Source of the DNA: a virus
Length of the DNA stretch: 51,920 nucleotides
Virus genome (UHGV): UHGV-0124386
Strand: one strand, 5' to 3'
Part shown: positions 2,528 to 8,036 of the stretch, piece after piece
Layout of the letters: each line of letters starts with the position of its first letter
Numbering within the stretch: position 1 is the stretch's first letter
Translations under genes and position numbers: made by a program
The notes under the pieces: generated by a model
The model's input: only the letters and a program-made list of their open reading frames with translations
What the model was told of the DNA's origin: nothing
Databases searched by the model: none

Positions 2528-3949
2528 TTAAAAAGATGCGTTGCTCTGGCTGTTTCGTGGGGAGAATCGACTTGCCGCCGGACGTTGTTGCATTGACTGA
2601 ATGCAAGCGGACGCCGCGCGGGCCTGGTCGCATGGGATGATGTTGCCGTTATCGTCAAACCGCTGGTAAACAGTCCCCGTTTTCCCGTGACGGTTTTTTG
2701 AAACGATGATCTCCATATATTCGCGGGCAACCGATTGTTCGTTGTAGTAGCCGTCGCGGTAGACCATGATGATCCGGTCTGCGTCCTGTTCAAGATTACC
2801 GGAATCACGCAGATCAGAATTGTTCGGGCGCTTGTTCGGTCGTTCCTCAACGCGGCGGGATAATTGCGCCAGTGCCGCCACTGGCACGCGCAACTCTTTC
2901 GCCATCATTTTCAATGACCGCGACAATTGCCCTACGGCGAGATCATGACGTTCGGCCTTAGCCAGTTTCATTAACCCGATATAGTCAATCATCACCATCC
3001 CCAGGTTATGATGGTCCTGTTTCATCCGTTCGACGGTGGCGCGTATTTCCTCGACCGTTAACTGCGATGCGTCAACAATCCACACATCGAGATCGGCAAG
3101 GGCACTCATTCCCTGGGCGACGTGCGCCCAACCTTCGTCATCCAGTTTTACCGGATTACGTAGGCAATCCGTTGATAAGTTCCCAGCGCCAGCGATAGCA
3201 CGTTCAGTCATCTGATCGAGCGACATTTCAAGCGTGAACAGCAAAACGCCGACCCGCTGACCTTCGCCTCCAGGGTATGGGCGTTCAGCCGCCGCGCGGG
3301 CAATTGCCAACGCCAACGCCGATTTACCAGACCCTGGGCGTCCGGCGATAAGCACCAGATCAGTAGCGTTAATGCCGCCTAACATTTCGTCGAGTGGGTC
3401 AATCCCTGTTTTGATGTTGTCAGAGTTCACGCCACACTCCATGCGTTTACTTAACACTTCCGTGTATTCCTGGACCGCATCGCGCAACAGCACCGGGATA
3501 ATTTGATCTTTTGTTACCTTTAATTTTGAATACCGGGAATCAAAATCTTTCATCGTCTCCCTGACGACTTCAAGCGTCCCTGTTTCCAGCTTGTAGCGAA
3601 TGTCTTCCATTAGTTCCAGCATTTGCCGACGCTGGTGTTCTTCCTGTAGTAGTTGCGCATATCCTTTCAGGTTGGCAGCAGAAGGGCACGATCGTGCCGT
3701 TTGCATTAGCGGTACAAAGTTTTCATTGCCAATCTCATCGCCAACCAATAACGCGTCGATAAGATTCCTGTTTCTGGCTTGCGCCCGGATAACTTCAAAC
3801 GCACGTTTATAAAGCGGGATCGTGAACACTTCAGGATCAAGTGTGGCGAGAACATCTTGAGCGTTAGGAGTAAGGCCACCTAACAGCAGCCCGCCGATAA
3901 CTGACGCTTCACGTTCCTGCCGTAGTGAGTTTATTTGCTCAGTTACCAT
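2528..3949 (-). CDS. DnaB-family replicative DNA helicase (P22 gene 12-like, 473 aa)
   Basis: Walker A GRPGSGKS, DnaB-like motifs (MIDYIGLM, SRRVEER, DSGNLEQDADRI, IVSKNRHG); position in replication module. Confidence 0.9.
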   Translation of the reverse strand: MVTEQINSLRQEREASVIGGLLLGGLTPNAQDVLATLDPEVFTIPLYKRAFEVIRAQARNRNLIDALLVGDEIGNENFVPLMQTARSCPSAANLKGYAQLLQEEHQRRQMLELMEDIRYKLETGTLEVVRETMKDFDSRYSKLKVTKDQIIPVLLRDAVQEYTEVLSKRMECGVNSDNIKTGIDPLDEMLGGINATDLVLIAGRPGSGKSALALAIARAAAERPYPGGEGQRVGVLLFTLEMSLDQMTERAIAGAGNLSTDCLRNPVKLDDEGWAHVAQGMSALADLDVWIVDASQLTVEEIRATVERMKQDHHNLGMVMIDYIGLMKLAKAERHDLAVGQLSRSLKMMAKELRVPVAALAQLSRRVEERPNKRPNNSDLRDSGNLEQDADRIIMVYRDGYYNEQSVAREYMEIIVSKNRHGKTGTVYQRFDDNGNIIPCDQARAASACIQSMQQRPAASRFSPRNSQSNASF

Positions 3950-3967
3950 TATGTTATTGCCTCCTGT

Positions 3968-5086
3968 TTACAAAATGGAATATTCAGGGTAATAAACAAA
4001 GCGCCCGATCTCCCCATGATCCGGGCTGTAAATAATCACCGCTGCCAGACGCCGCGACCGCCAGCCGCCATTAATTGAATAAGCGTCTTTACCCGCTAAT
4101 GTGCCGTGATACTCAACAACGCCTAGCGATGATTCAATCAGCCGTTGATGGTGCCAGTGCCCGCAATGAGCGTAAACCGCCGCAGACTTGCCGAAATCCT
4201 CACGCCAGTCAGCTACGCAAGCAGACAATAAATTTTCCGGCTTTTTGATAGTGTGCCCGTGGTGGTAAGCAAGGAATGTTTTGCCGTACTGTGTGTGGTG
4301 GACGATAGCAGGGGACACATCAACAGTTACGCGCGGTTCATCTTCGTAAAAAGCCGCCAGCGCAGCACGTAGCCAAATCATACCAGACTGGTCGTGATTG
4401 CCTGATAGTACCTGGATTTCAATATCCCTATGATTTAACAACATCTTCCCGACAGCCCGCCGGACCGACCTGATCGCTACATAGACAAGTTTTGCATAGC
4501 GCGAATCGCAATCAAGAACGTGATTGCTTGATGGCGTAACTGGCAACAGCCCGTCAGTGTGAAGAACATCCCCACCGAGAAGCAAAACAGCTTTCTCAGA
4601 CATCGGCGCAGCGCCTACAGCGTAGTCAAAGAATTCATTCAATACGCGCTCAGCGATCCCAGTGTCGTAACTCTCGCCGCATTCAGCTTTATGAGCAAGC
4701 GCCCCGATATGCAGATCAAATACCGGATAAAGGGCCAGGCTTTTTTGAAAATCAATTTCCGGCACTGGCACGGCCTCCGCGCGTGGGATTTCTTCAGTGA
4801 AAGCGTCGCGGGCCGCTTCCATTAGCCTTTCCATTTCATCGCGATCACGGGCTGTTTTAATCCAGCGCATGACTGTATTCCCATCCTTATCGACAAGAAC
4901 CGACTCACCAGTAACGCCAAAACCAGGGGCGCGGCGCGTTGATAATAAACCGCGTTTCGCCAGCTTTGCGCCCAGCCGCTCGACGTTGCGTTTTGACATG
5001 CCATATTTTTCAGCGATCTGCTTGTACGTTAAACCGTTGTTATATTCAGCGATCAATTGCTCATCGCTGATTTTTCTTTGCGACAT
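3968..5086 (-). CDS. N-terminal HTH domain fused to calcineurin-like metallophosphoesterase (372 aa)
   Basis: N-terminal HTH-like segment (LTYKQIAEKYGMSKRNVERLGAKLAKRGLL); phosphoesterase motifs DLHIG, GGDVLH, GNHD, HHGH, GHWHH; SD GAGGA upstream of ATG at 5086. Confidence 0.6.
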   Translation of the reverse strand: MSQRKISDEQLIAEYNNGLTYKQIAEKYGMSKRNVERLGAKLAKRGLLSTRRAPGFGVTGESVLVDKDGNTVMRWIKTARDRDEMERLMEAARDAFTEEIPRAEAVPVPEIDFQKSLALYPVFDLHIGALAHKAECGESYDTGIAERVLNEFFDYAVGAAPMSEKAVLLLGGDVLHTDGLLPVTPSSNHVLDCDSRYAKLVYVAIRSVRRAVGKMLLNHRDIEIQVLSGNHDQSGMIWLRAALAAFYEDEPRVTVDVSPAIVHHTQYGKTFLAYHHGHTIKKPENLLSACVADWREDFGKSAAVYAHCGHWHHQRLIESSLGVVEYHGTLAGKDAYSINGGWRSRRLAAVIIYSPDHGEIGRFVYYPEYSIL

Positions 5087-5119
5087 AATGTTATTTCCTC
5101 ATGTTTACATTTTGTATAT

Positions 5120-6043
5120 TTATTGACAGCAAACAATCTCTTTATATGTTTCTTCTACCATGTCGAATACTTCCGGCCTGTAATAAAAAAATTCAGTGCT
5201 ACCATCAAACTTAACAGGGAAGTTTATTTTATAGTCACTGAAAGCATCGTGCATTTTGCTTTCTATTTCCTGCATAATCTCAGTAGGCCCATTCCATGTT
5301 TTAACTACCTGTAAATCAGTCAGCCTTACACCTGCCTTACGAGCACTTTTAAATACTCTGTTCCTCCTTTCGTTCTCTTTTACGCTTACACCAATTTTCA
5401 TTTGTGTAGGCACTTCAAGATCATCAACCATGATGTAAAGTTTTCCGTTGTAGTGTGATAAAAACCCGTATTTAGCGCATTTCGGGCAACCGCGCCCGCT
5501 CTTAATGTCTCTAGGTTTAGCCGACCACTCATGATCACAAACCTTGCAGCGGCATAATACTTTTGTACTGTTATTAACTATTTCAACCAGCACTTCAATA
5601 TCAGGATTAACCTTAGCAATAGCCGATATTTGTTCTTCATGCGATATTTTTTTGCCTTGCGCTCGTTTTAGCACCGCACATTTCTGGCAACCGCTCCCGA
5701 TCTTAAGGCTTTTAGGTGTAGAATACCACTCATGATCACAAACCTTGCAGCGGCATAATACTTTTATTTTGTCGCCGGTAATTTCCCCAAGCACTTCAAT
5801 ATCAGGATTAACCTTAGCAATAGCCGATATTTGTTCTTCATGCGATAACTTCATATTCCCAGCGCATTTCTGGCAACCACGTCCATATTTAATATTGCTA
5901 GGTGTAGCCGACCATTCATGGTTACAAACTTTGCAGCGACATAATACTTTTGTACTGTTATTAACAATTTCCCCTAACACTTCAACATCAGGATTAACTT
6001 TCGCGATAGCTGCAACTTGTTCTTCATGTGTTAACTTGCGCAT
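5120..6043 (-). CDS. protein with three tandem zinc-ribbon repeats and a C-terminal T5orf172 (GIY-YIG-like) domain (307 aa)
   Basis: Three ~60-aa repeats HEEQ.AAIAKVNPD.EVLGEI..KVLCRCKVC.HEW..P..K.G.GC.KC; C-terminal KIGVS...GSTEFF signature resembling T5orf172; strong SD AAGGAG. Confidence 0.6.
   Translation of the reverse strand: MRKLTHEEQVAAIAKVNPDVEVLGEIVNNSTKVLCRCKVCNHEWSATPSNIKYGRGCQKCAGNMKLSHEEQISAIAKVNPDIEVLGEITGDKIKVLCRCKVCDHEWYSTPKSLKIGSGCQKCAVLKRAQGKKISHEEQISAIAKVNPDIEVLVEIVNNSTKVLCRCKVCDHEWSAKPRDIKSGRGCPKCAKYGFLSHYNGKLYIMVDDLEVPTQMKIGVSVKENERRNRVFKSARKAGVRLTDLQVVKTWNGPTEIMQEIESKMHDAFSDYKINFPVKFDGSTEFFYYRPEVFDMVEETYKEIVCCQ
5476..6028. repeat. triplicated ~190-200 bp tandem repeat inside the zinc-ribbon/T5orf172 gene
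   Basis: Antisense ORFs 5544.. and 5745.. both begin MQRHNTF and a third copy follows; protein shows three near-identical modules; coordinates approximate. Confidence 0.7.
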
Positions 6044-6182
6044 CGCTCCAACTCCTTAAGAACATCATGCGCGCTACAACGCAAAAACCCACCGCGACAC
6101 CCGTTTGCACAGGTTGCAGTGTCTTATTGCGTCAGAGACGCCATCAGGTGGCTAATTTTCGATTTACAGAATGGTAGGTAGG

Positions 6183-6284
6183 TTATGGATTGATTAGCAG
6201 GTACAGACCGCCGAACAAGGCGACGTTAACAGCGATTGCCGCAGCGATGGCAAAAGCCAGGGCGAAAACGTGTTTACCGTCCAT
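6183..6284 (-). CDS. small hydrophobic peptide (33 aa) MDGKHVFALAFAIAAAIAVNVALFGGLYLLINP
   Basis: Hand-translated; SD GAGAGGA about 8 nt upstream of ATG; single predicted TM segment; below ORF-track cutoff. Confidence 0.3.
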   Translation of the reverse strand: MDGKHVFALAFAIAAAIAVNVALFGGLYLLINP

Positions 6285-6417
6285 TTTAAAATCCTCTCTG
6301 TAACGCTCTATAACGAGCTAATCGCAAAAAGGTAAGCAAGTGTAGCACCACATGCGATTTAGCTCGCTGGTGAGGTTGTTTTGTGGGTAATTTTGGATTT
6401 TTGCGGATCGTGATTGG

Positions 6418-7470
6418 TCAAAGAACGCCAGCGCGCGTATCACGTAGCGTTTTTGGTTTAAGCAGGAAATCAAGTGTCGCGGTGAAGCCATCGCCGAAGT
6501 AAAAATCTGAAGCCGTGTTTTTGAACGTTTCGAAGTAGGCGACAAAGCCGTTAATGCTTTTGTCTTTCAGGTAGTCAGTGAACGCATAGATCTTGCGTTC
6601 AAGATCCCGATCCAGTTCGGCAGGTGGTAACAGGCCGTCAAACGTGCTGTTAAATGCTTCCACCACGTCGGCAGCGTTTACAGTGGCTGACAGTTTGCGC
6701 CATTGTTCAGCATCAGTCAGATACCCATCAAATTTAGTTACCCGGCAAATGTTGATAGGCTTAGGTACTCCACCACGGCTACGCCATTGGGTTAAAGCCC
6801 ACTCAATTACTAACGTGATCTCATTCTCCGTATACGCTTTACGTGTTTTTGTTTCTGTCAGTAGTTCTACGAATGGCTTAGCATCACGACATTTGCATCC
6901 TGCCTTGTCGTTGTAGAAGGCAAGGCAACGCAATGCCGCTTCGTTTACGCCATCCTGATTGACCATTTTTTGTTCATTTTCGACAATACACGAAGTGTAT
7001 ATATCTTTTTCTCTTTCTTTTTCTACTTCTAATTCTAATTCATGACCCTTTCCTGACCCGGTCATGACCCTATCATGACCTTTTTGTGTTGGATTGATTA
7101 ACTTTTCTAATTTTAATTGCTCCTTCGCTGTGTTTATGGCGGCCCTGTAAGCGCTTTTAGAAGTCATTGATTGGTCCAGCCTTTTCAATAACTTTAAACA
7201 AGTTATGTGGCCTTGAGAACATTCAAACAAACCAATTTCGATGAAGTATTTCATCATTTCTTCTATACGTTTTTCAGTAGATCCGACGTTTCGCGCAATT
7301 ATTCTTGCGTCATGTCGTAGGTCAAAAGTTAGATTGTGCTGATCTACGTCATAAGTTATTAGTTCTAGGCAATACCAATAAAGCCCGTACCCTTCCAGGC
7401 CATAATCTAACAAAACGTTTTGAAGTTTTTCATCGCGGTTCGCATCGCTGTCATGCTTAAACCACTTCAT
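6418..7470 (-). CDS. replication initiation protein / phage replisome organizer (O-like, 350 aa)
   Basis: N-terminus MKWFKHDSDANRDEKL typical of phage replisome-organizer N-terminal domain; position upstream of helicase. Confidence 0.7.
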   Translation of the reverse strand: MKWFKHDSDANRDEKLQNVLLDYGLEGYGLYWYCLELITYDVDQHNLTFDLRHDARIIARNVGSTEKRIEEMMKYFIEIGLFECSQGHITCLKLLKRLDQSMTSKSAYRAAINTAKEQLKLEKLINPTQKGHDRVMTGSGKGHELELEVEKEREKDIYTSCIVENEQKMVNQDGVNEAALRCLAFYNDKAGCKCRDAKPFVELLTETKTRKAYTENEITLVIEWALTQWRSRGGVPKPINICRVTKFDGYLTDAEQWRKLSATVNAADVVEAFNSTFDGLLPPAELDRDLERKIYAFTDYLKDKSINGFVAYFETFKNTASDFYFGDGFTATLDFLLKPKTLRDTRAGVL

Positions 7471-7473
7471 AGA

Positions 7474-7731
7474 TCATCCCTCCGGCAACATCACTACATA
7501 GACATCACTGAATGCATCAAGACGACAAACAAATCCTTTATCCATTAACGCGGCGAAGGCATCATGTACCGTATGAACAGGAAGTTCACACATTGCGGCT
7601 ACTTCTTTGCGTGATGCATCATGTACCCGTCCTTTGTTATCTGCCTTTTCAGCCAGAGCCATTAAGACAAGTTTTTGAATCGGGCTGTTAAGTTTTACGT
7701 TCCATACTTCATTCATCATGTGCATACTCAT
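7474..7731 (-). CDS. HTH DNA-binding regulator at Cro/CII position (85 aa from ATG 7731; ORF track extends to TTG at 7809)
   Basis: Strong SD AGGAGA 7 nt upstream of ATG at 7731; HTH-like segment SRKEVAAMCELPVHTVHDAFAALMDKGFV; first gene of the leftward operon. Confidence 0.5.
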   Translation of the reverse strand: MSMHMMNEVWNVKLNSPIQKLVLMALAEKADNKGRVHDASRKEVAAMCELPVHTVHDAFAALMDKGFVCRLDAFSDVYVVMLPEG

Positions 7732-8036
7732 CGTGTTTTCTCCTATGGTTAGAGTGAACGCGCGGGCGGGCATCCCATTAGCATTAGATAGCAGTGACTG
7801 ACCGCTCAACAGATCCCGCCGTTGCGTGATATTTGTTTTTCGCTTCGCAGCGACACCGGATTTTTAAAGAGCTTAAGGTAAGTGCCTTTTTGTGCCTTCC
7901 GTTATCTTTTTCCTTGCGTCTTTGCAAGTATGGCCTTACCTTGTCTGCAAGTTTACAAAATGGAATTTTAAGATCAAGGCTTAAAATACACGTTTTGTGA
8001 CTTGCATCAAACTTTTTGAGGTTATAGGGTAGCGAC
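7732..8036. promoter_or_regulatory. divergent immunity control region between Cro-like gene and CI-like repressor
   Basis: About 300 bp non-coding; contains inverted repeat ATTTTAAG-N7-CTTAAAAT (about 7964-7986) extended by ACAAAA/TTTTGT arms, a GTTTACAAAATGGAAT motif copy (7951-7966) and a TTGCAT -35-like hexamer near 8002. Confidence 0.55.

Follow-up and report, generated by a model that had tools for sequence, protein, structure and literature searches.

The triplicated repeat at positions 5476–6028 of the viral genome UHGV-0124386 (51,920 nt; the whole stretch is referred to as the window) is probably the DNA-binding arm of a free-standing homing-endonuclease-type gene (HEG) that is carried as a self-contained cassette and would fall within the GIY-YIG superfamily, in its T5orf172 branch. 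The gene is a complete minus-strand ORF (5120–6043) of 307 aa, and its product is identical to a 307-aa E. coli protein on record as a 'zinc-ribbon domain-containing protein' (WP_001229015.1). The exact protein (P0004) has been recorded from 176 contigs, and the CDS of strain FAH is identical to the 5120–6043 gene. A repeat search returned in-register direct copies of 173 nt at 5474–5646, 5675–5847 and 5861–6033, with 82–84% identity to the reference copy and start-to-start distances of 201 and 186 nt, and Tandem Repeats Finder reported a period of 201 with 85% matches. Repeats of 173 nt at >80% identity in a 1.7-kb region cannot arise by chance. With three in-register DNA copies found and coordinates that fit, the in-frame triplication described in the initial annotation is real, and the '~195-bp' period given there averages the two spacings of 201 and 186 nt.

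In the protein, the motif HEEQ..AIAKVNPD.EVL.EI....KVLCRCKVC.HEW...P...K.G.GC.KC occurs three times (aa 6–60, 68–122 and 135–189), giving a repeat unit of 55 aa with inter-unit linkers of 7 and 12 aa. The earlier description of the units as nearly identical was overstated: compared unit versus unit, the 165-nt cores share 75%, 82% and 84% identity as DNA and 71%, 82% and 73% as protein, and the longest exact direct repeat in the array is 58 nt (5589–5646, second copy 5790–5847). Antisense ORFs beginning MQRHNTF had also been reported. Two ORFs on the plus strand, 5544–5735 and 5745–6059, do start in this way, and the third QRHNTF lies within the second of them. They were dismissed: such ORFs arise where the repeated KVLCRCK codons are read as their reverse complement, and there is no sign that they are genes. 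From the ORF and the Pfam and PHROG 681 matches, the gene is laid out as follows:

5120..6043, minus strand: whole gene, three predicted zinc-finger modules followed by a C-terminal T5orf172/GIY-YIG-like domain
5864..6028, minus strand: predicted zinc-finger unit 1, aa 6–60, hypervariable residues VNNST / SATPSNIKYGRG
5678..5842, minus strand: predicted zinc-finger unit 2, aa 68–122, hypervariable residues TGDKI / YSTPKSLKIGSG
5477..5641, minus strand: predicted zinc-finger unit 3, aa 135–189, a mosaic of units 2 and 1
5123..5476, minus strand: C-terminal domain, aa 190–307, GIY-YIG fold, T5orf172/MUG113-like

The Pfam family DUF4379 matches three stretches of the protein (2.3e-21; 76.2 bits against a cut-off of 24.5), and the CapR homology domain matches as well (PF21817, 6.6e-15; 55.5 bits against a cut-off of 24.2), and both profiles are matched by 42 of 42 homologues. 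The fold of the module is named a treble clef in Pfam and a zinc ribbon at NCBI, and in the AF2 model unit 1 is a helix-strand-strand-strand-helix module with a pLDDT of about 90. The profile matches bear out the three zinc modules that had been claimed, and each 55-aa unit is predicted from them to be a Cys4 zinc finger with the treble clef of the CapR/DUF4379 domains. By homology to CapR, whose cysteines are required for binding, the units would be expected to bind DNA. When the family profile was used to search solved structures by sequence, the matches were confined to DUF4379 proteins of the trypanosomal mitoribosome and included no nuclease. The first motif, CxCxxC, holds three Cys, and some units have Phe at the first position or Asp at the third (P0001 unit 2 and the units of P0081), which suggests that either CxC or CxxC may supply two ligands and that zinc ligation is redundant. 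In two metagenomic proteins of 514 aa (P0081 and P0088), six similar modules are fused to a different C-terminal domain, 'RPDF...WIEYDGIQHF', that looks PD-(D/E)xK-like by eye. Since PHROG 559, 'HNH endonuclease', likewise matches the zinc-finger array, the array appears to be a portable DNA-binding arm common to several nuclease types.

Residues 190–307 adopt a GIY-YIG fold, and the protein matches PHROG 681, 'endonuclease', over aa 5–301 (7.7e-57). The scores of the window protein itself lie under the Pfam cut-offs for both T5orf172 (PF10544, 18.1 bits against 20) and MUG113 (PF13455, 20.2 bits against 22.3); among its close homologues, T5orf172 is matched in 34 of 42 and MUG113 in 30 of 42 at E<=1e-3. 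Pfam GIY-YIG (PF01541) was absent among matches up to E=0.1. Residues Y203, K216, G218, R226, H265 and E284 are invariant in 42 homologues, and the domain has a dN/dS of 0.15. Of these residues, Y203, R226 and E284 are the putative counterparts of the catalytic Tyr, the Arg and the metal-binding Glu, an equivalence read from motif order only because an hhalign comparison of the family alignment with the I-TevI catalytic domain gave no alignment. A Foldseek search with the full-length model was uninformative, since the modules are flexibly linked; Slx1 was returned at a probability of 0.84 but at E=0.1. The putative nuclease domain would be expected to cleave DNA. P0040 (233 aa), encoded on an E. 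coli contig of 5.1 Mb, copies the window allele exactly but is truncated by a frameshift within the nuclease domain, after ...KENERR, as would fit a selfish nuclease gene that decays in part of the lysogens.

The window shares 84–92% DNA identity with phages MagusPhagus, mEp515, mEp013, mEp554, mEp044, mEp010 and mEp021, and on these similarities we assign it to an mEp021-like (mEpimmI-group) temperate coliphage or prophage. The mEpimmI phages are a group of Nus-dependent non-lambdoid phages (PMC11893012); neither 'zinc' nor 'homing' occurs in the text of that genome paper, in which the gene is apparently not discussed. The prophage is present at 99.5–99.9% identity in the complete chromosomes of E. 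coli FAH, MS 21-1 and 2017C-4173W12. Every gene of the replication stretch lies on the minus strand, transcribed in the order replication-initiator-like genes (7474–7809 and 6418–7470), a 33-aa ORF, the zinc-array gene, an exonuclease gene and a helicase gene. The surroundings of the array gene comprise the following:

2528–3949, minus strand: DnaB-type helicase gene, after the exonuclease gene
3968–5086, minus strand: DNA-repair-exonuclease/metallophosphoesterase gene, after the zinc-array gene
5125..6069, no strand assigned: cassette of 945 bp, absent from the empty-site relatives MagusPhagus and mEp010, with BLAST breakpoints at 5124/6070
6052..6057, minus strand: putative Shine-Dalgarno AAGGAG read from the sequence, within the cassette and 8 nt upstream of the ATG

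In BLAST comparisons, homology to all relatives that lack the gene ends at 5118–5133 and restarts exactly at 6070. The empty slot in MagusPhagus and mEp010 is about 15 bp, TTTTACGGAAAATAA on the coding strand. The same slot holds a 247-aa Bro-N/KilAC-type gene in mEp515 and mEp554, two other genes in mEp044, and the zinc-array gene in the window, mEp013, mEp021 and at least 12 E. coli prophages. The gene is thus free-standing, and genomes that are otherwise similar either have it at this one site or lack it. At 36–41%, the GC content of the cassette is lower than that of the window (46%) and of the adjoining exonuclease gene (51%). Homologues at 45–54% identity (47–54% over the full length) occur in unrelated lytic Vequintaviruses (Escherichia phage WalterGehring, L014 2390–3382, and others), directly downstream of nrdD, which encodes the anaerobic ribonucleotide reductase. 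Vequintavirus nrdD is split by an intron carrying another homing endonuclease, and one of the array homologues is annotated as 'putative homing endonuclease'. Presence and absence, a frameshifted copy and homologues in lytic phages together form a pattern typical of free-standing homing endonuclease genes; the slot also holds non-nuclease cargo, and ordinary recombination at conserved flanks could also give this pattern. Within flanks of 400 nt on each side, the only fixed difference between genomes with and without the gene is position 5094 (C/T in 6 genomes with it, A in 5 without), 8 nt upstream of the exonuclease start codon, which is one weak candidate for a target or immunity site in a sample that is too small (6 versus 5 genomes).

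Sites in a promoter and terminator scan of 4900–6600 were no more numerous than in shuffled sequence, and Rfam and tRNA scans of the window gave no match. Between the replication gene and the cassette sits a strongly hydrophobic 33-aa ORF (6183–6284, minus strand; MDGKHVFALAFAIAAAIAVNVALFGGLYLLINP). An ORF of equal size, 102 bp, is annotated at this position in 7 of 7 related phages, and it may encode a conserved small membrane peptide. A second variable slot is the gap between the helicase and exonuclease genes, which is only 18 bp in the window (3950–3967) and contains an HNH 'homing endonuclease' in mEp515, mEp021 and mEp010 (L002 585–1139, L004 2585–3088 and L007 550–1140). Bro-N/KilAC-type genes with the same slot boundaries as the array cassette are found in mEp515, mEp554 and mEp044 (L002 2242–2985, L005 1721–2464 and L006 1721–3075) and in several E. 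coli prophages, and one of these proteins, mEp044_12, joins a Bro-N N-terminus to a 'YEIDEEQHF' C-terminus that by eye resembles a PD-(D/E)xK nuclease. Several records of about 137–143 kb labelled 'Campylobacter phage' carry a homologue at 47% identity, a value also seen for homologues from coliphages, and these records may bear the wrong host label.

The number of modules varies at this locus, with one unit in mEp013 (178 aa), three in the window and six in mEp021 (495 aa). Among the best 120 of 573 homologues, two units were counted in 22, three in 67, four in 23, five in 4 and six in 3, using a Cys-motif regular expression that slightly undercounts variant units (P0001 scored 0 and has 4). 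In the lineage of the window itself, P0031 combines two units with a C-terminal domain 97% identical to that of the window protein, and P0001 combines four units with one that is 94% identical. P0031 (L013, E. coli assembly GCA_025795475.1) equals the window gene minus exactly 201 nt: 23 of 723 nt differ when one register switch is allowed, against 170–282 when none is. The switch falls at nt 278–321 of P0031, which corresponds to 5723–5766 (unit 2) and 5522–5565 (unit 3) of the window, a tract common to both units:

5723..5766, partner 5522–5565, minus strand: crossover interval of the 201-nt in-frame contraction, encoding the KVLCRCKVCDHEW zinc knuckle

The product joins the unit-2 loop to the C-terminal half of unit 3. 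This is the form predicted for an in-register deletion from three units to two, and a duplication from two to three predicts otherwise. The repeat-number polymorphism anticipated in the initial annotation is therefore present among homologues, as one, three and six units at the locus, two to six among the best 120 homologues and one exact 201-nt recombinant.

The recombination between units that had also been proposed has left its trace in the array of the window. Unit 3 matches unit 2 without a mismatch along 53 nt at its 5' end (P=0.0004 given site-specific variability) and along 41 nt across the zinc knuckle, and between these tracts it bears the loop block of unit 1 (VNNST) in a 26-nt identical run. 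The 58-, 53- and 41-nt tracts that units 2 and 3 have in common could be taken to mean that the triplication is a very recent, strain-private duplication or an assembly artefact, and the initial annotation had held that high identity implies recent duplication. The units nevertheless differ at 16–25% of nucleotides, synonymous differences among the three amount to a pS of 0.40–0.58, and the diverged alleles MLI107, LP-26, M1/5 and N25 (82–84% DNA identity) all have three units as well. The similarity of the units at the protein level thus reflects purifying selection on the scaffold rather than youth. Neither positional orthology of units between alleles nor strict concerted evolution within them describes the data, as unit-to-unit identity is 65–86% equally within and between alleles; units 5 and 6 of mEp021, at 93%, are the only pair that looks recent. 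The units are old on average, yet patchily homogenised by ongoing gene conversion or crossover. As for the concern that the repeat may cause assembly collapse, the longest exact repeat is shorter than an ordinary sequencing read, the same array is found in the three complete E. coli chromosomes and on the 176 contigs, and collapse or artefact is unlikely. Taken as a whole, a recent or artefactual origin of the triplication is extremely improbable.

Across 19 units from six alleles, dN/dS is 0.90 at 11 hypervariable columns (6, 22, 24–26, 36, 41, 44, 45, 48 and 50) and 0.12 at the remaining 44. The most variable columns among 376 units from 119 proteins (2, 9, 22, 24–26, 36, 40–42, 44, 45, 48 and 50) largely overlap these 11, and 363 distinct units carry 356 distinct hypervariable signatures. 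Mapped onto the AF2 model, the hypervariable positions occupy two regions: one directly follows the first zinc knuckle, in the loop that joins strands 1 and 2, and the other precedes the second knuckle, in the segment of strand 3, a short helix and a loop. We infer that such positions set DNA specificity on a conserved scaffold. In the mechanism that we propose, each 55-aa unit would fold independently, with short flexible linkers giving 'beads on a string', and the three units would jointly read an extended DNA site, so positioning the C-terminal GIY-YIG-like domain for a cut nearby. Repair of the cut from a genome that carries the gene would spread the gene, by which the cassette may home, and the same cut could also disable a competing phage. 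Since the units have identical tracts of 40–60 nt in common, homologous recombination between them adds, removes and reshuffles units in frame and may thereby retarget the nuclease. A stronger form of this proposal is speculative, and we think it unlikely to hold: the 55-aa units would be true modular readers, each on a fixed short stretch with about 11 hypervariable residues specifying bases, and arrays of one to six units would be programmable by recombination. If so, unit shuffling such as the 201-nt contraction or the mosaic unit 3 would retarget the nuclease in a single step, and phage nucleases would possess a natural targeting system analogous to zinc-finger or TALE arrays. Eukaryotic C2H2 arrays and TALE repeats, like the array of the window, consist of small tandem modules with a fixed scaffold and few hypervariable residues, and change length by recombination; their folds are unrelated and the analogy is functional only. 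For CapR/DUF4379 modules, neither a recognition code nor a footprint per module is known to us.

The closest known systems are the T5orf172 HEGs of lytic vibriophages. According to Barth et al. 2023 (PMC10448857), CapR, DUF723 or DUF4379 zinc fingers occur in 87% of 229 T5orf172 HEGs, often several per gene as 'beads on a string'; their coding repeats recombine, as seen from a 228-bp deletion that keeps gp174 of ICP1 in frame and from an array of six repeats in phage Helene; T5orf172 nuclease activity is Glu-dependent in Odn, the one case cited; and sequence alone, the authors caution, cannot establish homing. The HEGs of ICP1 (gp174, gp165 and others) and Vibrio phage Helene share with the window gene one to six N-terminal zinc modules ahead of the C-terminal domain, which is T5orf172 in those HEGs and T5orf172-like here. 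Also shared are degenerate nucleotide repeats, the gain and loss of whole modules in frame through repeat recombination, and a location at boundaries of variable regions. In contrast to those genes, the window gene comes from a non-lambdoid, Nus-dependent phage or prophage of E. coli that is temperate, its 55-aa unit is very regular, and it has a relative with a deletion of 201 nt rather than 228 bp. The pattern of hypervariable positions and dN/dS was measured here and did not turn up in term searches of that paper. In every testable feature, the window gene appears to fit the class of T5orf172 HEGs with CapR-like arrays. It was rejected as a classical GIY-YIG enzyme of the I-TevI/Seg kind, to which only the fold is similar and for which there is no PF01541 match: in T4 I-TevI and Seg the nuclease is N-terminal and the DNA-binding part, a NUMOD/HTH domain, is C-terminal, whereas here the order is reversed, the DNA-binding part is a zinc-finger array and the YIG tyrosine is replaced by Lys (KIG).

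Two other roles for the protein were weighed against that of a homing-type nuclease. CapR of the Vibrio PLE satellite is a zinc-finger DNA-binding repressor, related to the N-terminal domains of putative T5orf172 HEGs of ICP1, and it needs all four of its Cys to bind DNA (Netter et al. 2021, PMC8096241). The window protein has the homologous domain PF21817 with the conserved Cys pairs, the CapR repressor itself derives from HEGs of this kind, I-TevI has a second function in repression, and the T5orf172 and MUG113 scores fall under the Pfam cut-offs, all of which would accord with a non-cutting regulator whose fingers sit on a promoter or origin and whose C-terminal domain is non-catalytic. The similarity of CapR to HEGs is, however, confined to the N-terminal DNA-binding part; CapR is satellite-encoded, whereas the window protein is phage-encoded and combines three fingers with an apparently intact nuclease domain, in which the complete GIY-YIG fold and the invariant Tyr, Lys, Arg, His and Glu are kept under a dN/dS of 0.15. 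Identity with CapR was rejected on the conserved domain and the position of the gene in a phage replication module, and we hold a regulatory role to be very improbable. Unlikely, though conceivable, is that the gene is a domesticated or weaponised nuclease, retained by the prophage against competing phages, satellites or plasmids, with an array that evolves fast to track its targets. It has precedents in coliphage odn-like T5orf172 nucleases and in ICP1 Odn, which cuts the PLE origin and which, like the window protein with its T5orf172-like domain, fuses a T5orf172 nuclease domain to an exchangeable DNA-binding domain (RepA_N in Odn, which acts in anti-satellite defence, and a zinc-finger array here). 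A location in a prophage, within the replication module, would suit such a role, a dN/dS near 0.9 at the hypervariable positions fits retargeting in an arms race, and the three-module form is stably kept across the alleles at 82–84% DNA identity. Against this, PADLOC defence models gave no match, no target is known, and the presence and absence of the gene, its frameshifted copy and its spread to unrelated lytic phages beside nrdD are typical of selfish HEGs. Weaponised and homing roles are not mutually exclusive.

As a homing-endonuclease-type cassette, then, the gene is of a type already described in phages, and is a further member in a temperate coliphage group; what is added is a clean natural series that runs from one module to six, a single pair of exact recombinants and the difference in selection on the scaffold and on the hypervariable positions. 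Genes annotated as 'zinc-ribbon domain-containing protein' in mEpimmI-group E. coli prophages would, on this reading, be HEG-type nuclease cassettes, and such cassettes would mark the replication module as containing a gene-exchange hot-spot. The repeat has diverged far enough for safe assembly, and variant calling should expect real in-frame length alleles of about 186–201 nt. The lineage offers one, two, three, four, five or six modules on the same nuclease domain, together with hundreds of distinct units on one scaffold, a series with which the reading of DNA by CapR-type zinc fingers, and the effect of module number on nuclease targeting, could be tested.
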